From: Balanoglossus misakiensis
Lineage: Eukaryota; Animalia; Hemichordata
Length of the DNA stretch: 64,000 nt
Assembly: GCA_040954595.2 (NCBI GenBank)
Contig: CM082582.2
Coordinates: forward strand, 7,442,063-7,506,062
Direction of reading: 5' to 3'
Shown one piece after another: positions 3,846 to 63,123 of this stretch (position 1 is the first letter of the stretch; each line of letters opens with the position of its first letter). Made by a program: the position numbers and the translations under genes. A model generated the notes under the pieces. That model ran no database searches, was not told the origin of the DNA, and saw nothing but the letters and a program-made list of their open reading frames with translations.

Positions 3846-4253
3846 CTACCAGAAGTCTTGATCCGTGACGTATTTCCGCTGATAAGGGTCTTGGTTGTCC
3901 ACTTTCAAGCTTCTCTGCTTGTGTCTCGGCTTGCTGCGGCAGTAGATGTACCAGCGCCCCCGCCGCTTCACAAAGTAGCAGTCCTTGCAGCGTCGCCTGA
4001 GAACCACTTTCGATTTGAAAGTGTTGACGTGTTGTACGACTGCCGGCAGGACTGGCAGGAGACTCGTGTGCGTGTGCCCGACGCAGTGTGGTGGTATACA
4101 GTGTTGCTGTGGTAAGTCCTGTCTTCTGTGACTGAAGACACTGTAGGAGGATCGCAGTGCCGTGCTGGCGGTGGTGGTGGGGTTCCAAGAAGATGTGAGC
4201 CCTCTGGTGGCCACTGTTAGCAGACCCCTACACTTTCCAAGCAGGGAGTTCAT
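3846..4253 (-). CDS. MRPL36: Mitochondrial ribosomal protein bL36m
   Basis: Single coding exon. An N-terminal Ser/Thr/Arg-rich presequence precedes [36 protein letters not shown], the L36 CxxC...C...H zinc ribbon. Probable 5'UTR intron (donor near 4705, acceptor 4297-4298). Minus-strand AATAAA at 3666-3671. Confidence 0.95.
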
Positions 4254-5051
4254 GTCTTCCCTTTGTACACTACCTTTTCCAATTGTACTGAATTTGCTGT
4301 TCAAAAAAAATAATTAAAGATGGGTAATTGGTATCACATCACGGCTAAGCCATAGCGTGTGAATTTAGAAGATACCTTGCAGTTCATGATGTGTGTGGTT
4401 ATCATATGCCTAGCTCATCCTTTTTCTTCCACAAGTAATTTCAGAATTATGAATTGACGTACTGTATTGCACAATTGGCATACCATATATGAACATTGCA
4501 TCTTCCTGTTTGCTGAAATGGTTCCACTCCACCCACCCCATTCCAGACAAGAGCAACCAACTGAATGATATGCATAGTTTGTGTACCATCCTATGCCATA
4601 TCATTGTACACTGATATTAGCTGCCACTGGTTCTCAGATCAACCAGTGATCGCGAAGCCTCAACTGGAGATCAGTTTTGACATTAAGTTACTCATGAATA
4701 CTTACTGCCTAGTTACGAGAAGTATGATGTTTTCGGCTCTATGAAGATATGTCCGTCATTCACCGACCACTTGATCTGGTGGTTCCGTCGTCAGTAAGTT
4801 CGTTCACACACGCTCACCGACAATAGACCCTTTAACTCAATGCTAAACATCAAACTTTTTCGTTAGCACTTTACAGTGAACAATTAGTTCACGCGTTCTT
4901 CTTAAACGCTGCTTTGATTTCGGATATTATTGTATTAGCTTACCTAAATACTACATTTTTAATATAATTCCGATTATTTTAGAATCTGAACTCTCTAATC
5001 ATTAACGAGATAAAGGGTCCATAAGATATCCCAGTGGACCTTGCAACCATC
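4254..5051. promoter_or_regulatory. Probable bidirectional promoter and 5'UTRs shared by MRPL36 and NDUFS6
   Basis: Divergent start codons about 800 bp apart. The NDUFS6 ATG sits in a YY1-like CATGGCGGC context. Confidence 0.7.
4824..5021. mobile_element. Candidate MITE (about 198 bp) in the MRPL36/NDUFS6 promoter
   Basis: TAGACCCTTTAACTC (4824-4838) and GAGATAAAGGGTCCA (5007-5021) form a 13/15 inverted repeat around AT-rich non-coding DNA. Flanks are CAA and TAA, an imperfect possible target-site duplication. Confidence 0.4.
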
Positions 5052-10200: not shown

Positions 10201-13200
10201 GTTACTATACCTCATCGTAACCTTTGCACCCTGACCCCTTGACCCTATAATGTCATTTGGAAGTTTTCTTCCAAGTTGGGGTTCAAAGGGTTAAACGAAG
10301 AGATTCAAAGTTCAGTTGATATGATTTATATGGTGGCTTTAACCACAACGTGAAGGAAAAATCGGTTTACAATGTTTTGTGTTGAGTGCGACCTCTGCAC
10401 TCTGTGGTTTTCTTTGGAGGTTCCCACCCATAAAATTTGGAGTTTATTTTCTCGACAAAGGATACAATGACTTGAAGCCGAGACTGTGCGTGGCTAGGCA
10501 CGATAACAGCCACGCAAGACACCTGTAAGGGTCAGATCCATTTGTGAGCGCGGTTTGGATGCATAGAAGCCGTCCCAAAGCAATCAATATCAAAACTTTG
10601 GTTTGACAATACAGCACAGTGGAACGTTTAACACTCATTTGATCAGTGCCAACCAGGAGCAGTTGGGCTGTGTTGAATATAAAAATGGGCTTGGTTCATT
10701 TCTACGGGATCATAATAGATTTTTATTCAGACGTCACATGGTGTCATCAACACTGAAGTGTAAATAAAGACAAAATATGGCATGTTCGAGCAGCAACCGT
10801 GGCAACAGTTGATATGTAAATTTTCTGAGAAATGAAAGAAGCATTTGTTTGTGTGTGTGGTGCGCGCTTTTAACTTCAGGTTCAATGGCTGTGTCCCACA
10901 CCTAACTTTTATTCAACAAGTCCAACGAAGTCACATTATGCCTTCACACACGCATGTGCAACAAACCCGTTTGATAACCAAACAAAGATACGGTACCCTG
11001 CCACTTGCTGACTTCATGCAAAATCTTGGCAACTGCGCCTTGAATCATCTGAAAGGATTATGGGATAAGACTCCGGCTTTGCTCTGACTCTGATCGCATG
11101 TGCACCACACATTCTGTTTGCAACTTTATAGCTTCTAAATCATGTTTTGTCAGTTTCTATGGTTACTGCACAGTTTGTTATATGTTTTGGTGTTTTGGGT
11201 AATCCATGTCTCGCTTCTACAAAATTGCTGTAATTTTCTTCCCATCCGGACAGGGCAAAAGTGATCAATTTCACCAGTACAGCTTAGAAGCCATCACCAT
11301 AATTCAATCAGTGGGATAGTGTCTTTTAATTAAATACGAGCGAGGTCGAAAAGTCAAGCTGTTCTCCATATGCGCCGTGTAAAAAAATATCAGTGAAATA
11401 TTCTCTGTATGCTTGGCTGTTTGCTCAGTAGCAAAAAATCAATTGGCTCCGGATGGATTAAGGCTGGATTTACTCTGGTTTCCATGGCGACGCTAAAACA
11501 AACCCAGACAAAGGAGCAGTGTGGGGTAATACCGGAATGGCTTTCAAGCACCCACGAGAAGCCTTAATTATTACAGTCATTTACAGTTTCAGCAAATATT
11601 CACGTTGAGTGGTACTCATAACTTTGAAAATTATGAGTCGTACATTATCCCATAAAACAGTTACTTGTCACTTTTGACATTTCCTGGCCCTAAAAAATTC
11701 ACTGTGCTTTGGTCAATAAAACTTGAATTATCGTATTTTGTAGGTAAATGAAAAGTGCTGCTGAGCACGTAAATTTTACAGCATTCCATTTATGAACAGA
11801 AAACAGCAAAATATGATTAACAACTAGCCAAATTCATAGTTTAGGTAAATCTTGACTTACTGAATGCTAATTGCTGTTGAGTTTCTTCAGTTAAAGCAGT
11901 AGCAAGATCAGTTAATGAATTTATTTGAACACAGGTACTCAAGGCTGTTTGACTATGTTAATGCTTGTTTGTAATTGTGTAGGGTAGGTGCTCATAGTCA
12001 CCATTAAAATACTGTCTCACTTGAGTCTGTTTGTTTCTTTATCCCCCAGGTCCAGACAACTGTCCCCCAGGCCTGCATCCTCGTTGCCAAGGCGACCGCA
12101 CTCAACAATGTCTCATTACAGCAATGGGTCGGTCTCATCGGGGAATGACTACGACAGCCTGACGCCTGAAATTGTGCGCCAGCTAGGGGACCTCAACAAG
12201 TCGACGCCCTTCTACGATGTGCCAGAGGGACCCTTCAGGACGGTGAAATGTGGCAACTGGTCGGATTCGGAGGAGGACGACAAGAGTGATGAAGGAGAAA
12301 AGAAGGACGATGATGCAGAGGAGGAGGTGAAAGAAAGTGATGATGAAAGGGAAGACGAGAAGGAAATCCGACACAAGGAGTTCGTTATTCCATCAGATTT
12401 AGAAGATTATTATGATGATGATGTGTTCTTCAACGAATCTAACGTGGAGGAACCGGAGCAGGATTACGCCGAACCGCTGACGGAACCGTTTTGCGACATG
12501 GACCTCTTGTACCTGGCGTGCCTGGAGGAGGACTGGAAGGAAGTGCTGGAGAAGAAACCGGAAGGCGAGGAAGAGACGTACATGGAGCGGCTGGTGGAGC
12601 TGGAGAGACTGCAGTGGGGGACCGTCAACTGGGAATACGACAAGCTGAGAAACGTCGGGAAGCGGTCGCAAAAGCAGAAGAACGGCGGCAGCGATCGGGC
12701 GCAGAGCGCGGGACCCGGCGGCACCAGGCCCAAGTCGTCGCGGAACTGCGCGGACGACTGCATGCAGGTGGCGTGCGCCGGGGACTGCCCGTCGAAGCGG
12801 CGCGTCACCTCGGCCAAGGGCTGCTACCACTGCAAGAAGCGGACCTGCAACGGCAGCTGCACCGAGTACGGTTACCAGCACTTCGTGCGGTCGCCGAGAA
12901 CCGACAGCGACAACGACGAGCCCCCGAAGAGCCGGCCCAAGTCGTGCAACAGCTGCACGCGCAGGTCGAACCGAGCCAACACGATCAACAGCAACAACAC
13001 GATTCTCGGCCGCCCAAGGTCCCTCTACGCCACGTACAGCGCGTCGGAGATGTACACTGCGGACCCCAAACCCATCTCGGGCGCCATCCACTCACCCCAA
13101 CAGGTAGTAATTACGCCCACTTCTGCGAGACCCTCCACCCCGCACTCGAACAAATCCTCCTCTCGCCCGTCCACGGGCAAGGCGCCCAAACAGAAGGGTC

Positions 13201-13340
13201 GGGACTCCGTCAACATCGGCAAGAGCTTTACCTCTCAGAGAAAGAACTCCATAACAAAGCCGAATGACATAAACATAGTCGGCGCAAATTCAAGAGTCAA
13301 ATCTGGCAGAAAACGAAGGCCACGGACAGCCAAGAAATGA
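7233..13340 (+). CDS. FAM217-like protein with acidic tract, Cys-rich module and basic C-terminus
   Basis: Phase-compatible exons 7233-7354, 7481-7622, 7847-7904, 8193-8218 (26-nt microexon), 9145-9225, 9752-9909 and 12050-13340. The last exon has YAEPLTEPFCDMDLLYLA...ETYMERLVELERLQWGTVNWE, matching my recollection of the FAM217 core (YPDFLPPPF..DL..MA...YIDRLIQLEWLQVQTVQCE). Gene structure is well supported; the family call is from memory. Confidence 0.7.
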
Positions 13341-22060: not shown

Positions 22061-28302
<6,242 letters not shown>

Positions 28303-55052: not shown

Positions 55053-55518
55053 AAGCTTTGTGTTTTTATTGTAATTATCAACGTATTAATTAGTCAATTG
55101 CTTTAATAAAACATATTTATTAAAATTTAATCTTTGTCTCGATCGCCAGCCCGACAAATGCACAGAAATGTGTGCATTTATCCATTATATTATTGATCGA
55201 AACGTGAACCGTGGACATTTTTTTCTGCGTTTAACAAGTCTCACGAAATCTCACACCGAACGGAAAATCATCTATTAGCACTATAAGTCGCGAGATATAC
55301 AATAAATGTAAGATGAAACTGTTGTATATAGCTCAACATCTGGTCAATACACTGCATATTTACAAACTTAATGAACGTTAACATAAATGACGTTTTTTTT
55401 TTAAATCACTGCACTGACTTTACAGTCGTACATTTTGCAGTCAGTGTCACGTTACTTTATAGTAATAAAAGCTCAATTCAAAATTGCTTAGATCATTTTA
55501 TTGGGGGGTTCGGAATGT

Positions 55519-58500
55519 TCACCTTCGCTTCAAAGCTGTAACGATGTAGTATACAACCTCAAACAGTTCAAACAAGGTCATGAGTGAGAGGCCGATGAAC
55601 AGCCCTAGAGCGCCACCTATGTCGCTTATAAGCTGGAAAACCTGAAACAAAAGTCAAGAGGAAAATTAGATTTCAGTCAAGCATAGAATTCATAAGCTGT
55701 GACACATATTAATATAGACAAAACAAAACAAAGCAAAACCAAACAAACAAAAGAAAGTCATGACTTTTTTAATCGGGAAAGGTGGTAACACACGGACTTA
55801 TCATTATTGCACGAAAACCGTATGGGTGACTTTTACATACTCTTTATGGCCGTAAATAGTAAACCCTCAGAAGCATCAGCCCTCCCCTCCCCTCCCAGGC
55901 CCTAGGAAATAACGAGACACTACCGACCTCGAATTCTGGGTATTCCTCAATTTTGTTGTAGTTCAACTCATTAAAGTAGACTTCTAGACTCACAAGGTTT
56001 TCTCTGAAATTAAATGATTTCGAAATCTAGGTTCCTCGTGGATACGGAGAAGGATTGTCTATCAAGATAACCACACTGCAGATAACGTGGATTGTGAAAA
56101 GTGGGCACTTGTGTCCCCTTAAAGCATTTCCAGAAATTCATGTGTGCTTCCCGTTTCATGTCAGTCCACGTGAGAAGCAAATTCCTAAGTTAGCCTTGGG
56201 ATAAAGTATTTAAACTGCTTTGGACGCCATCTTGTACCAATGACTGCACACTGCGCACGCGCATAAACGAGAGACATTTTTAGATGAGACTCACCTGGCA
56301 CTGAATTTGTCGTTGATGTTGAAGGTTTTGTTGTTGACTGTGTGAATAATTTTGAGCAGATTACTCTGTGTAGATGGAGATGCGCAGAGAAACACAAACA
56401 GATAAAAAACACATCTAAATGTAAGATTTGGTATTTTGAGCATACAGATATCAGTGGAGACACGCACGAAAAACTTCAGGAGATAGGTAAGGTAACACAC
56501 AAAAATAATCAACAACAATGTTACGTTCACTTACAAGATATTGATTTGATGGCCACAGTGCCATTGATAGTTTTTCTCCGTAATATTTCCCCCTGTGGAG
56601 CGATGTAATTAAAAGTGTCATTAAAATCATATTAAAGGTCAAAGAAAATAAAATACATTTAGCGTTATTGTCAAGAATTTGAACAAGTTTCCAGATGTAT
56701 TTACTTGTGGTTATCTAGATGTTATGACGTCATCACTTACCGACAAGACTGTGGACATTTACATGGCAACAGGTCTTCTTGGTGAAAGTAATACATTATC
56801 TGTTTACACATGTCTACGAGAACAGAACACATATACAAAGCAGCTGTAGGCCCTATCTCTGCTCCATCAAATTAAATATTCGGTTTTGATGTCAAAAAAA
56901 TTACATGCTATTTGAAAAGTTGATACGGAGTAAGTCCAGTTCTCAGAGGAAATGCGTTTCCATGACATGCAAACAGAATCCATTTTAATAGTCGCAAATT
57001 AGCCTACGTACCCTGCGTTTTGTTGAGAATCTGGCACCTTTGGGCGTCCATCTCAAACGTATCCACGCAGCCGCAGTATTTCAGCATATGGCGTTGTACG
57101 CAAGCGCTTTGGCACGCCTTTGAAAACGAATGAATGAAATGCAAGCATGTGAACGAAAGGTAAATCTATCTCACCCCATGTATACACCATTGCAAAAAAA
57201 AACCAAAAAAAAAAAACCGGCAGAGTGATGTAGTGTGAAGGGTTCCACATCATCACTGAGCACAGGAACTTATTTTCTGTATCCAATGCTAACTTTCTTG
57301 AGATTTGGTTTTAACCTTTATCTCCACAGTCTTGACTCAATAGACAAAATAATGAATTATAAAAATGAAGTCGTTTTCTAATTTGTATTTCTTTCCACGT
57401 GTACAGTGTACTAAGAAACAAGGCACAGTCTGAGTGTACAAGCGATTAAGAAAGAGACGGTACTCACCGCCACAGAGTATTGCCGCCCGTGTAATGTTTT
57501 CTCGAGGTCTTCTTGGCTGTTACCGTACGTGCAGTTGCCATACGGATGCGACTTTCTAATCAAAACATGCTGAAAATGTAAATCATTGGAGAGTGAGAAT
57601 AGCAGAAGGACCAGATCTGAAAAACTGTGACAGTCATTGACGTACTAACCCGTACAAACACGACAAGGAAAATGTAGTTTTACCTCTCGTAGACCAATGC
57701 TTGTCTCAATTCCAGGCTGCACCGTCACTCCGTCCTCTAAGTTTATGTATTCAGACTCTTCGGGCGGCGTTATGGTAACCCGTATCCCGGACTGGCGTCC
57801 GTAGATACTGATATACTCGGCTTGTTCTGTGAACAGCGTCAACTTGAGACCGTAATGGGGTCCCGTTCGACTGACATAGAATGGTTCCTGCTCACTGCGC
57901 GCTCCCGGGAATGTGTAGCAGTTGCCGTAGCGATCGTCTTGAAACGCGGAAAAATTACTGAAATCAAACGGTGGCAGCGTACGATTAGGTGGTCACCTCC
58001 AATTTACATATGTTCACAAATGACAAAAAATGGCGTATCCGAGTGTTCCATAGAACATATGGTGGCACTCTTTTTTTCACTTGTGCCACCCACTGAACAT
58101 CTGTGATTGGCTAGATCTCAGTTTGCCATGGTAACTGCGGCTGAATTTCCATAGGTGTGCCTTTAATAACCATTGAAACACGAAGAAGCGTTACGTAAGG
58201 TACCTTGGGTAACATTTCTGTTGGTTGAAAGTGCACGTCAGAATCAAGTCTTCGGCTTGGTGTCCGAGTGTTCTGATCTCTTCGGCTTCGAGTTTCAGCA
58301 CCTCTTCCAGGTCACTGTAGTCTGGGGTTGAACTGAACGTGAGGAAACCATTCCAGTCGGGAGGGTCCTCTCCCTTGACTCGGTCAAACCCTCGATCCCT
58401 GTAAAAATTCTCTTCGAAATCCCTGTACTTTCTCGTGTCGCTGGTGAGAGTGAGAAATGGGTCTCGCCAACCTGCCGTGAATACGTCTTCAAACGCCGGC

Positions 58501-61500
58501 ACTGAATCAAGAGAAGGGGTTGTAGGCTAAGGGAATGGTTCAAGAAGTGCGGTCGACGCGACGCTGCCTTCATATTTGACCATATCTTGGATTATAATGC
58601 TGCTGCACCACCACAATCACCACCCCCATCGTCATCATCACCGCCACAGACCACCACACCATCATAATCATTATAATCACCACCACCACCACCACCACCA
58701 CCACCACCACCACCACCACCAGTATCATCATCATCATCAACATCGTCGACTGGGGACTTTTAAGGTTTCCTTGTTGGACAGAGAAAGAAAGGCGTTGAGG
58801 GCAGTGATTGAAGATACGATGATTAAATAGGAACGGCAGTTTGGATTTTTGCTCGGAAAGTTTGGACCATAGACCCGCATCAGGGTCCATGCTTGGACTG
58901 ACACGTGAGAATAAATGGTGAAAAAATCCTAATATTCGAGTGTTTTTGTTCACCAGTTGCTGTTTATGCCATCTGAAGCAGCGATTACCCTCTCAATCCA
59001 ATTGATATCGATAACACGCCTAGACAAACGAAAAGAACATACCCGAATGTGAGCAATTGGCTTCATCGCTGTAATCCTCGCAATTCATGTTGGTATCACA
59101 GTTTGAATACAGGTGCGCACACTGCCCATCGGAGCACGTGAAACCATCGCAAACCTGTACGGTGCTCGGAGTGTCTGCAGAATCAAAAGTAATACAAGAA
59201 ATGTTACTTATAATGTTATTTCTCTTCTAAAACGCTTTCTCCAGGTTAGTACAATGTTCCTAGCGAACAGTGTTCATCTTTATTCTCATACCTGGAGGAG
59301 AACTTGTGTCACCTTCACCGACTACTGTTGTCGGCATATCATCGGGATCTGGGGACACAGACGAGACTTCTCCTTCCGGGAGAGGGAGAGAGAAGGGGAT
59401 TGCATTTCCAGGAACGTTACGACCGCAGATTTCTGGGTCCTCGTCTTCACCGAACGGGCAGTCGATGACGTCGTTGCACATGTCCAACTCAGTCAAACAC
59501 TTCGAACCATCGAAACAACAGAAGGGACCAGCTGGTTAATAAAAGGGCAAAACTTTGGTGTTAAATACGGGTTACCAGTTCAGAAGTTGTTATTGTGCGT
59601 GTAGCGCTGATGTCGACAATTGTAACCAAACTGAGACCGAACGACCAAGGAAGCTAGTCGTTTAGATCACAGCAGCTATAATTAAAGGGCGACGACCGTC
59701 TTATGCGCATGTGCCTAATCAGAGACTCTGGTTGCAAAAATTATATACAATAAATGCAATAAGGCAGTTTGCTGTCCCATCATCGGTCAAAATGGCGGCG
59801 ATTGGGATTAAACATTTTCCCCAGCGAAGAGAGAATTAACATTTTAAGTTCTCCTATACCTTGTGAGGTAATGTCATTGGCGGAATCTTCCGGGACAGAT
59901 AAATCCACGGCGGGTCCAAATACATGTATAGAATTAAAAGACAATCCGCCGCACATTTCTGGGTCTTCGTCTTCACCGAACGAGCAATCGATTACGTCGT
60001 TACATAAGTCTAACTCTGTCAAGCACTTCGAACCATCGTAACAGCAGAAGGGACCAGCTGGTGGATAAAACGTCACGTTATTACAAAGAATTCTTGCTTG
60101 GGGGAACTTAATACGATTTTTATACATTACGTTCTCATATAAATATGTTTACTTTGAAAAAAAGGCGAGGAAAAAACAAAGGACACATTTCTCACCGGGT
60201 TGGCATCCTGCTGGCTCGTCCGAGGCGTCTGTGCAATCTTCGACAGAATCACACACCCACGAGGCGGGGATACACTGAGTTCCATTATCACAGGAAAATG
60301 TCGTGCATTCTTTGGAAAAAGGGAAGATATACATTTCAAATGCGTGAGAATAGAAATATAACAAGTGACGTAACTGCCGAGACCTCCACGCAAATTGATT
60401 TTCTTGATGGAGAAAATGATTTAGTTTACCAAAACCAACAGAAATTGCCCCCTCTAGGTTTAATCCCTACTGGAGCGGGAAACGGCACACCAAGTCTCTG
60501 TGTGTGGGAGGGGAGGGAGAGATTGCTAAAAGTAAGAGTAGTTTCTTACCACAGCCTGTTTCATCAGAACCGTCAGAGCAGTCTATATAATTGTCACATT
60601 GATACCAACCAGGAAAACAGGTCCCGTCATCACACGCGAACTCGTCACTTGTACAGACACCTAATGAGATTTTGAAAAAAAAAATATTAAAACGGGGTGC
60701 ATTTTGAAAATTTAAAGCAAAACTTATGATTTGCACAATGTGGAGATACTGAACTTCTCATTTGCAGTTAATTGATATTGATTACGATTATACCTGTTAG
60801 AGGCTCTGAGCCTTGTCCCGATCCTGCACCATTCCCACAACTTTCATTTTCATCCACGCCACCAATACAGTCAGGGTAACCATCACAAACCCAGTACATG
60901 GGTATGCATTGTTCTTCACACGCAAACTCCTCGTCCGCACACCCTTGAATAGGGTCACCTGAAAATATTTCAAATTTTATACATTACATACAAAGGAACA
61001 TCTTTTTTACACTGTGCGACGCGTCTCTCTGATACGTGTAAATTCTACCTGTCTTAATTAACTTCTTTACTCTTTGTGGTCGTTTCTTCAACGATTTTCT
61101 GACGTCACTGTCGTATGGTGGCATCGAAGTGCTCGTCTGCTAACTGTATTCATTTTTGTTCACCAATGGATAGAAAAATACTTTACGTTGACAGATGTCT
61201 TCATCCGATTGATCCAGGCAGTCTGGATAGCCGTCACACACGTATGACCCCGGAATACATGTTCTTCCGCCATCGCATGGAAACTCCAAGCATTCTCCTG
61301 CGTTAAAAATAAAAAGACACACATGTATGAAAGCTGCTTTGATTGTCCTGTTTTATCACACGAGAATACTCTTCAATAAAAACTCCCTGATCACGCGAGA
61401 TCTTGCAAGATCTGGTGGAGTTCGGAAAAGGGTCTATCGGCATACAATTTTTCCTAGCGCCCACCATTAAATACCGGCGTTATCAAACCAGCGAGCGACG

Positions 61501-61685
61501 AACATGTCCCCGATCTTACCCTCGCATGAGCGTTCATCGCTGCCGTCAGTGCAGTCTTCGGTTCCGTCACAGACCTTGCTCTTGAGTATACATCCGCCTC
61601 TGAAGGTGCATCGAAACTCGCGGGGTTTGCATTCTGTGGAGAAGACGGAATGTGAGTGGTTAATGCAATAGGCAGAGAGGGGAGC

Positions 61686-61733
<48 letters not shown>

Positions 61734-63123
61734 GAGACAGACAGACAGAGACAGAGAGATTCACAGACAGAGAGGGGGAGAGAGCTACTCACGGCAGTTG
61801 TCTTCATCCGAGCCGTCGTAACAGTGCACCTGGCGATCACACTCGTATCTCTTCTCAATGCAGAAACCCAAATCACTACCGTTCACACATCTTAACTGGT
61901 TGTCTCCGCATTCTCCTGGAAACGACCAATGACGTGACAATGTTTATGATGCTGGGCATAGGTGGTGGCCGGGGATGGGGATGAAGACGGGCAGAAATCG
62001 GTATTTAATAACGAATTACCCGCAGATGGATTAATTGAATCTCACATAACCATTGGCTACGCCATTAACCTACCGTAAGTGCAACCATCTTCATCGCTGA
62101 AATCCTTGCAGTGGTTGATTCCATCGCAGCGTAGATACTGTTTGATACACAGGTCACCATTTGCACAGTGAAAATCTCCAGATATACAAGGAGCTGCAAA
62201 ATATTCGGTACCATGTGTTTAATCCATTTTTAAACAAGTTAAGTGGCGTCGATAGATATATATATATAAGCGTAACTTACCGTAGTAGGGTAACACAACC
62301 TGCTCGTCAACAATCAACATCTTTTTGTGTGGAGACGAAGCGATGGCGGACTTCCTCAATTTGTTGACGTTACAAACAGTCACGCTGGGAAAGACGAGTC
62401 GCTTCTCCGTCACCACTTCAATCTGTCATACGTAAAAAATAGAGTCAATTATTCTAGATCTGTGGAAATGTGTAAAGTTTTTTTTTTCTCGAAATGATGA
62501 ACGAAGTCACGGATATACATCATATACCGGTAGGTGTACAACAGTTCCAATTAATATTTGTTACTTTGATACTAGATAAGAAATGAAATTGGTACGTCTA
62601 TGGATAGATTGATGGATGGGTGGATATATCGGTGAATGAATGAATGAATGAATGAATGAATGAATGAATGAATGAATGAATGAATGAATGAATGAATGAA
62701 TGAATGAATGAATGAATGAATGAATGAATGAATGAATGAATCACCTTCGTAATGACGTCAAATTTCAGGAATTGTCCAACTAAAGCCGACCCTTGCCACA
62801 GGAATGCTCCGAAACCCGTTAAAGTGACGACCAACCAGCAAATGGCAACGGTTCGATTGGTCGCCCCGCAGATCCTCGGGATGCCGTGAGTCGTGGTGTT
62901 CAGCCCGCATTGTTTCACCACGCCCCAGATGGTCGCCAGGTTTTTCTCCTCGGTTTCGTCGACGACGTTGACCCGGGGAAACGCGGGGTCGATGGTGTCA
63001 TACAGTTGCGGGCCAACATCTGACGCGCCGTTGAAGTTGACGGGTGGGGCGACACCAAACGCCTGGTCGGAGATCGAATAAATGGCGTTTTCCCGCGCAA
63101 ACCTGCCATTGTTGCGTTGATCG
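55519..63123 (-). CDS. DEG/ENaC (amiloride-sensitive channel family) subunit with ten LDL-receptor class A repeats in the ectodomain; start exon not found
   Basis: Channel exons: 63123-62745 ([11 protein letters not shown] motif + TM1), 62422-62281 ([10 protein letters not shown]), 58501-58204 ([14 protein letters not shown]), 57957-57684 ([19 protein letters not shown]), 57569-57468 (PYGNC), 57117-57012 (CQSAC...CGC), 56813-56741, 56592-56535 (WPS), 56365-56295, 56003-55928 (VYFNELNY), 55641-55519 ([24 protein letters not shown]2). Ten LDLa exons lie between 62193 and 59043. All junctions are phase-compatible. Confidence 0.93.
57991..58167 (+). repeat. Short dispersed repeat, copy B
   Basis: See copy A. 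Contains the internal inverted repeat GGTGGCAC...GTGCCACC (58061-58090) and ends in CCTTTAA. Confidence 0.7.
58606..58745. repeat. Degenerate (CAC/CAT)n microsatellite in a DEG/ENaC intron
   Basis: Visible trinucleotide tract; explains the poly-H and poly-V ORFs. Confidence 0.93.
59043..62193 (-). other. Array of ten LDLa-repeat exons within the DEG/ENaC gene
   Basis: Exons 62193-62074, 61915-61793, 61633-61520, 61297-61187, 60958-60794, 60660-60550, 60309-60196, 60057-59860, 59531-59292, 59174-59043. Each length is a multiple of 3, each is flanked by phase-1 introns, and each has six Cys plus a C-D-x-x-x-D/H/N-C-x-D-x-S-D-E-type motif, e.g. [36 protein letters not shown]. Confidence 0.92.
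61686..61784. repeat. (GACA)n/(GA)n compound microsatellite
   Basis: Visible tract in the intron between LDLa exons 2 and 3. Confidence 0.9.
62633..62741. repeat. (TGAA)n microsatellite next to the donor of the TM1 exon
   Basis: About 27 perfect units; explains the IHSF repeat in ORF 62598-62921. Confidence 0.97.

Follow-up and report, generated by a model that had tools for sequence, protein, structure and literature searches.

A DEG/ENaC channel subunit of the acorn worm Balanoglossus misakiensis with ten LDL-receptor class A modules in its finger region, and the modular ambulacrarian clade to which it belongs

A preliminary description of a 64,000-nucleotide stretch of the Balanoglossus misakiensis genome (contig CM082582.2, hereafter the window) claimed a chimeric gene, in which a subunit of the DEG/ENaC channel family carries ten low-density lipoprotein receptor class A (LDLa) repeats in its finger region. 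Is the array truly part of the channel and, if so, what does it do there? Here, we investigated the gene (minus strand, 63123–55519), its relatives, and the predicted structure of its closest full-length relative. The array lies in a single channel frame, and the arrangement recurs in hemichordates and echinoderms. Alignment and model indicate that the array probably fills the α1–α2 loop that houses the GRIP domain in vertebrate ENaC. Our tentative reading is that the ten modules form a putative antenna, which binds an extracellular protein, soluble or anchored, and is coupled to the finger gate. What is new here is the clade and its modular loop rather than a single gene, as the window gene is one of many.

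An array within one channel gene

The gene model has 21 exons, and all 20 introns are of the GT..AG type. See Table 1 for the coordinates and contents of the exons. Once joined, the exons read open from 63122 through the TGA that ends at 55519, a total of 1042 codons. As first described, the channel scaffold is intact. The HG motif, the first transmembrane segment (TM1), FPxVTxCN, YGNCYTF, the Cys-rich thumb, and the second transmembrane segment (TM2) with its GLS filter are all present, and hydropathy places two membrane regions on either side of a large ectodomain. Pfam ASC matches five of the nine channel exons scanned, three of them above its cut-off. Outside the array, the ectodomain has 14 Cys (counted by eye), the number for the seven disulfide bridges that passages of PMC6197857 describe as family-wide. 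In the clade described below, 48 of 49 rows retain the TM2 Asp, and GxS is found in 49/49, though by construction of the search pattern. The residue preceding the Asp, which we take to be the degenerin site, is Ser, Ala, or Gly in every clade row. With the TM2 Asp, the small residue before it, and the HG motif all kept, there is no sign of a dead pore. The window protein has no C-terminal PY motif, and its tail stops a few residues past TM2.

Exons 3–12 add up to exactly the 1428 nt (476 amino acids) originally reported as the insert, running from the donor at 62281 to the acceptor at 58501 in ten exons with phase 1 at both ends. Its 60 Cys make up ten six-Cys LDLa modules (LA1–LA10), one per exon. 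All ten are recognized by pattern, with six Cys and a terminal acidic motif, and eight pass the Pfam PF00057 cut-off when the exons are scanned singly; the other two (60057–59860 and 59531–59292) give no Pfam match and retain the six Cys and a terminal DE. The count of ten repeats therefore stands, although the repeats do not account for the whole insert, about 100 residues of which are Gly-rich and Pro/Ser/Thr/acidic linkers. LA8 and LA9 are identical at 97 of 113 nt, with unalike flanking intron sequence (30/63). Over 36 codons, 9 nt of difference fall in synonymous and 5 nt in non-synonymous codons. Mostly synonymous changes beside unalike introns are the pattern expected of translated exons.

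Could the fusion be an artefact of the gene model, the LDLa exons being a nested gene or always skipped? All junctions from 62281 to 58501 are in phase 1, and a direct splice between these two points also keeps the frame, so skipping of the ten array exons is possible, as judged from DNA alone. Automated gene models here are also imperfect: the Ptychodera model P0001 spans only the last module and exon 13, and P0043 is named a GRL101-like receptor. We nevertheless consider an artefact extremely improbable. No signal peptide, start, or stop occurs among the array exons, and the same order in the same place, with orthologous end modules, is found in seven named species. Across four genes with listed isoforms (six pairwise comparisons), none loses the whole array, and one isoform loses one module. 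Furthermore, the closest full-length protein, P0017 of Saccoglossus (LOC100372922), is collinear through the array, linkers, and core, with 54% identity in the core, as expected of one gene.

The 5′ end is less clear. Exon 1 opens at phase 2 behind an acceptor, the 21-exon model contains no in-frame ATG, and none of the six strong-consensus donors in the 877 nt upstream of exon 1 closes an ATG-started exon in the needed phase. Because exon 1 lies behind a normal acceptor and 877 nt from the window edge, the first exon may sit outside the window. An ATG in good Kozak context at 63109–63107 (minus strand), 14 nt into exon 1, is out of frame with the channel; it may be incidental, or it may mark a slip of one base in the assembly or a defective allele. 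Together with the missing in-frame ATG, it would suit a defective copy with its true start in another frame. The abundance of paralogs in each genome and the EGAS subunits, reported as silent in oocytes in parts of PMC10424705, would likewise suit a subunit that does not conduct alone and plays a regulatory role in a heterotrimer. We regard both versions as quite improbable in view of the 1042 open codons, the intact splice sites, the kept pore residues, and the synonymous bias in LA8/LA9, and the start may simply lie beyond the window edge.

The insertion point and the GRIP loop

Among 104 fetched proteins with both FPxVT and GNCY, 31 carry LDLa modules between these motifs. The first Cys of the array lies 39–46 residues past FPxVT in 28 of the 31; the exceptions are two gastropod proteins and P0025. 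The last module ends 111–126 residues before GNCY in 25 of 35 hand-picked LDLa-bearing rows, window gene included. The other ten comprise five clade rows with other modules in between, one row without a value, and four gastropod, acoel, or gastropod-clade rows.

The AlphaFold model used here is that of P0017 rather than of the window protein (99-row alignment; mean predicted local distance difference test score, pLDDT, 86; predicted template modeling score, pTM, 0.70). It has the palm, thumb, finger, and knuckle fold. Its core matches ENaC γ (6wth_C; Z 33.9, root mean square deviation 2.7, 348 residues aligned) and FaNaC (7yvb_A; Z 33.6, root mean square deviation 3.7, 397 residues aligned) in what amounts to a tie, with the ASIC structures slightly lower (Z ~30). 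The modeled array enters directly after the first finger helices, which, with the narrow range of entry points, bears out the finger location proposed at the outset. Past the last module, the model has two clade-specific helices and then a helix starting at a Trp. This Trp is kept in 32 of 34 clade rows, and MAFFT aligns it with the α2 Trp of ENaC.

According to passages of PMC6197857, the GRIP domain of ENaC sits between α1 and α2, wedging finger and thumb, and an excerpt of PMC8791634 describes it as unique to ENaC. In FaNaC, the α1–α3 corner binds the peptide, and the same finger corner is listed as a protease, proton, and proposed matrix-tether input site across the DEG/ENaC family (PMC11026163, in part). 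From the location of GRIP and the peptide corner of FaNaC, the array probably sits at the main gating input of the family.

A location in the same loop as GRIP also suits a different function, in which the array acts as an inhibitory cap resembling GRIP, or as a protease dock, and cutting of the loop opens the channel. Consistent with this, R-x-K/R-R sites occur between FPxVT and GNCY in 8/8 module-less or amphioxus relatives examined. In addition, the module set found in this loop across the family (LDLa, SRCR, CUB, kringle, and PAN) resembles the non-catalytic parts of trypsin-like proteases. However, the ectodomain of the window protein has no R-x-K/R-R (furin) site, and the GRIP P3–P4 Cys pair was not seen. 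Within the clade, such sites occur between the two motifs in 9 of 27 rows, at scattered positions, and 18 rows have none. Being this sporadic, furin gating is unlikely as a shared mechanism, and we judge a cap or dock to be improbable.

Vertebrate ENaC (SCNN1A/B/G/D) thus resembles the window protein in the DEG/ENaC fold (seen via P0017) and in an extra finger domain between α1 and α2, the position predicted here for the array. It differs in having a β-stranded GRIP, whereas the window gene has an LDLa array, no furin site, no PY tail, and a separate branch in our trees. FaNaC likewise shares the fold and the use of the finger as a ligand-sensing corner (PMC11026163, in part), but it takes a short peptide in a pocket, lacks a module array, and forms its own clade.

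Relatives and distribution

Exon 13 is 75% identical to the Ptychodera flava protein P0001. A search with exon 14 found ten proteins, eight of them with ASC and LDLa, and a search with the channel half of one exon-14 relative found 46. A hidden Markov model search gave 391 matches, of which the best 150 were considered. Combining ASC (PF00858) with Ldl_recept_a (PF00057) and a phylogeny, as the preliminary description had suggested, led to seven named species in one clade: the hemichordates Saccoglossus, Ptychodera, and Glandiceps, and the echinoderms Anneissia, Patiria, Acanthaster, and Amphiura. RefSeq labels these relatives "uncharacterized," "degenerin-like," or "LRP2-like." The chimera is therefore real, but its novelty must be qualified, as it is one member of a large ambulacrarian clade already present in automated annotation. 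Each genome has many paralogs, whose loops combine LDLa with kringle, PAN, CUB, TSP1, SRCR, F5/8, ShK, or HYR modules. The unnamed ambulacrarian proteins share clade and insertion point with the window gene and differ in module count and type.

We performed an IQ-TREE analysis of the channel core on 39 hand-picked rows (LG+G4 without mixture). The 20 chosen ambulacrarian LDLa rows, including the window gene, form one clade (support 97/96), which nests inside a deuterostome-plus-acoel clade (100/99). A FastTree analysis of 127 rows, from which fragments, amphioxus near-duplicates, ASIC rows containing duplicated segments, and the cluster members P0183–P0203 were left out, agrees with both clades (90 and 99). 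ASIC rows were left out of the trees. The window gene falls outside the ENaC branch, which is represented by alpha-like rows only. Mollusc FaNaC-like rows form their own clade (100/99), in which only P0048 is named FaNaC-like by its source. A single clade of gastropod and ambulacrarian LDLa channels was rejected (approximately unbiased [AU] test, p 3.7e-32), which points to a separate gain of LDLa or to many losses. The gastropod modules show no LA1/LA2 preference. Grouping of the acoel Symsagittifera protein P0165 with the ambulacrarian LDLa clade gave an AU p of 0.49.

Several relatives differ in what the loop holds. P0160 and P0113 (gastropods) and P0165 have two LDLa modules in it, the gastropod ones also with polybasic sites. 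Amphioxus (Branchiostoma) P0030, P0031, P0033, and P0081 have about 800–1150 residues of F5/8, kringle, and link-like modules there and no LDLa. A module-less sister clade (P0027, P0034, P0036, and P0007, from sea urchins, a sea star, and Ptychodera) has a Gly/Ser/Trp-rich low-complexity loop with furin-type sites at the GRIP position; from sequence, its members are candidate protease-gated invertebrate ENaC-like channels. A subclade comprising P0020, P0022, P0109, P0161, and P0009 (Glandiceps, Ptychodera, and two others) has a long N-terminal extension before the channel. It mostly has a signal-peptide-like start and FN3, with many EGF-like repeats seen by eye (Pfam finds FN3 only), plus a third hydrophobic segment and a ShK-like array module; it is present in more than one species and recalls the EGAS design.

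In Caenorhabditis elegans, EGAS-1 to -4 are likewise DEG/ENaC subunits fused to repeated extracellular modules (PMC10424705, in part). Irrespective of their position, those modules are EGF, whereas the modules here are LDLa, and Pfam finds no EGF domain in the window gene. Tandem one-exon LDLa modules are also the rule in LDLR, VLDLR, and LRP2, and a sequence search with the array of relatives puts LRP2 first. Unlike these receptors, the window protein has two membrane segments and no long endocytic tail, and no YWTD propeller/EGF-precursor region was found in it by Pfam or in the model.

A putative antenna and its alternatives

The modules of the array are not equivalent. Taking the Ca-ligand and clamp residues to be those of LDLR structures, presumably with the same roles, all four Ca-ligand acids are present in five of the ten window modules, and the clamp aromatic as well in four only (LA4–7). 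The initial picture of acidic modules that bind Ca2+ and lysine-bearing ligands hence, judged by sequence, would suit LA4–7 in full and does not extend to the array as a whole. The end modules have identities of their own. For window LA1, the best match is the first module in 17 of 24 relatives; for LA2, it is the second module in 16 of 24. Across the family, with modules classed by distance from FPxVT, an LA1 with both clamp Asp occurs in 0/29 proteins, and the full lysine clamp occurs in 26/110 middle, 5/31 second, and 0/29 last modules. In the P0017 model, the first two and the last modules have pLDDT values of 85–92, and the middle modules 58–81 outside linkers. Fixed adaptors at the base of the array plus a variable binding arm would fit these patterns.

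The known activators of DEG/ENaC channels are protons, short peptides, bile acids, proteases, and force, and we know of no member with its own protein-binding array. If the array is an antenna, LA4–7 would, in the presence of Ca2+, clamp onto lysines of a protein that is secreted or belongs to mucus or matrix, with LA1–2 and the last module serving as adaptors on the finger. Binding would then shift finger and thumb and open or close the cation pore, by analogy with peptide binding in FaNaC and loss of the GRIP wedge in ENaC. Other ligands would fall to the paralogs with different modules. With so many paralogs in each genome, heterotrimers are conceivable beside a putative homotrimer displaying 30 modules.

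Several observations weigh against an antenna. The 29 proteins counted are related to one another, which robs the clamp counts of independence, and the full clamp is found in only about a quarter of the middle modules. The higher pLDDT of the end modules may stem from alignment depth rather than packing. One Patiria isoform does without LA2, which is therefore not obligatory. The flexible Gly- and Pro-rich linkers might uncouple array from gate. The α2 assignment is the MAFFT placement of one Trp plus a predicted helix, and a pairwise BLAST of exon 13 against salamander ENaC alpha showed no similarity. Finally, EGAS-1 to -4, the nearest precedent with added modules, gave no oocyte current (PMC10424705, in part).

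Some of the same features would suit an array with the sole role of anchoring or sorting, by which the channel is brought to mucus, glycocalyx, cilia, or a partner subunit, with gating left to something else, such as a peptide, pH, or a constitutive leak. The P0017 model has long, flexible, low-pLDDT linkers within the array, and module number (2 to 12 LDLa) and type vary freely among family rows. The module-less sister clade retains the same post-array finger motif, which indicates that this finger can exist without an array. We consider a pure anchor unlikely nonetheless, since the end modules are position-specific and clamp-less and stay at a near-constant distance from the core in animals as far apart as crinoids and acorn worms, which suggests that a contact surface with the finger has been preserved.

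Gating by Ca2+ or pH, with repeats unfolding at low Ca2+ or pH, is the weakest of the options first put forward and, in our estimate, very improbable. The insert is very acidic (102 Asp/Glu and 19 Lys/Arg), and LDLa folding requires Ca2+, but the Ca2+ affinity of LDLa modules is far tighter than seawater, at about 10 mM, would test. Furthermore, the loops of paralogs mostly hold kringle, PAN, CUB, or F5/8, which Ca2+ sensing leaves unexplained.

A broader form of the antenna reading, which we regard as doubtful, is that a whole family of invertebrate-deuterostome channels responds directly to protein ligands. Exon shuffling would have brought phase-1 receptor exons (LDLa, kringle, PAN, CUB, TSP1, SRCR, F5/8, ShK, and HYR) into the finger loop, downstream of an LDLa adaptor that is conserved. 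Recognition of the receptor type would thereby be connected to a sodium pore without intermediates, at the site of ENaC protease gating, a solution that gastropods would have reached separately.

Table 1. Features of the channel gene in the window
Feature	Position	Strand	Content	Support
Exon 1	62745..63123	-	Cytoplasmic N-terminus (5′ incomplete), HG motif, TM1	Pfam ASC E 4.6e-6, hydropathy
Exon 2	62281..62422	-	β1–β2, FPxVTxCN, first finger helices; ends at insertion point	
LA1	62074..62193	-	Position-specific LDLa, His replacing second clamp Asp	
LA2	61793..61915	-	Position-specific LDLa; tandem acceptor, possible start 3 nt later	
LA3	61520..61633	-	Four acids intact, without clamp aromatic	
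LA4	61187..61297	-	Full clamp set	
LA5	60794..60958	-	Full clamp set, plus Gly/Ser-rich linker	
LA6	60550..60660	-	Full clamp set	
LA7	60196..60309	-	Full clamp set	
LA8	59860..60057	-	Divergent and under the Pfam threshold, with linker; duplicate of LA9	
LA9	59292..59531	-	Divergent, duplicate of LA8, plus Pro/Ser/Thr/acidic linker	
LA10	59043..59174	-	Last module, end 113 residues before GNCY	
Exon 13	58204..58501	-	Clade-specific post-array segment and remaining finger, Trp aligned to ENaC α2 Trp	
Exon 14	57684..57957	-	YGNCYTF, β-ball, palm	Pfam ASC E 1.4e-12
Exons 15–17	57569-57468, 57117-57012, 56813-56741 (span 56741..57569)	-	Cys-rich thumb	
Exons 18–20	56592-56535, 56365-56295, 56003-55928 (span 55928..56592)	-	Palm, knuckle, pre-TM2	
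Exon 21	55519..55641	-	TM2 (conserved Asp, GLS filter), then a very short tail and the stop	
Polyadenylation hexamer (candidate)	55497..55502	-	Just past stop	Consensus match only

Simple repeats (TTCA, TCTG, and GGT/GAT runs) lie in introns 1, 4, and 12 (62634–62742, 61690–61770, and 58590–58740). Elsewhere in the window are an open reading frame of the ribosomal protein L36 family, probably mitochondrial (3849–4313, minus strand), and a 450-codon open reading frame with a FAM217 family match (11988–13337, plus strand). Arg/Ser-rich exons at 26067–27619 (minus strand) have no Pfam match and presumably resemble the N-terminus of PRP4 kinase.

In line with the preliminary description, which knew of no functionally characterized channel with this architecture, we found no description of ASC combined with LDLa in the open-access literature, subscription journals being outside the scope of the search. 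The term "LDL" is absent from the main text, as far as it was available, of PMC10424705, PMC9234716, PMC9949801, and PMC10507113; supplements were outside the scope, and the trees may hold unnamed tips. The accessible part of PMC10507113 mentions channels of ambulacrarians and cephalochordates that are uncharacterized and lie close to ENaC and FaNaC.

Even if the array only anchors the channel, this is still a large, mis-annotated channel family that is missing from the published accounts checked. If the array gates the pore, these channels would be naturally occurring ionotropic receptors with proteins as their ligands. A single polypeptide would then suffice to test the long-standing tether model of degenerin mechanogating, since the tether belongs to the channel itself and its exons can be removed one at a time. 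The clade presents the GRIP loop as a general dock for accessory domains, a point of relevance to the origin of protease gating in ENaC.

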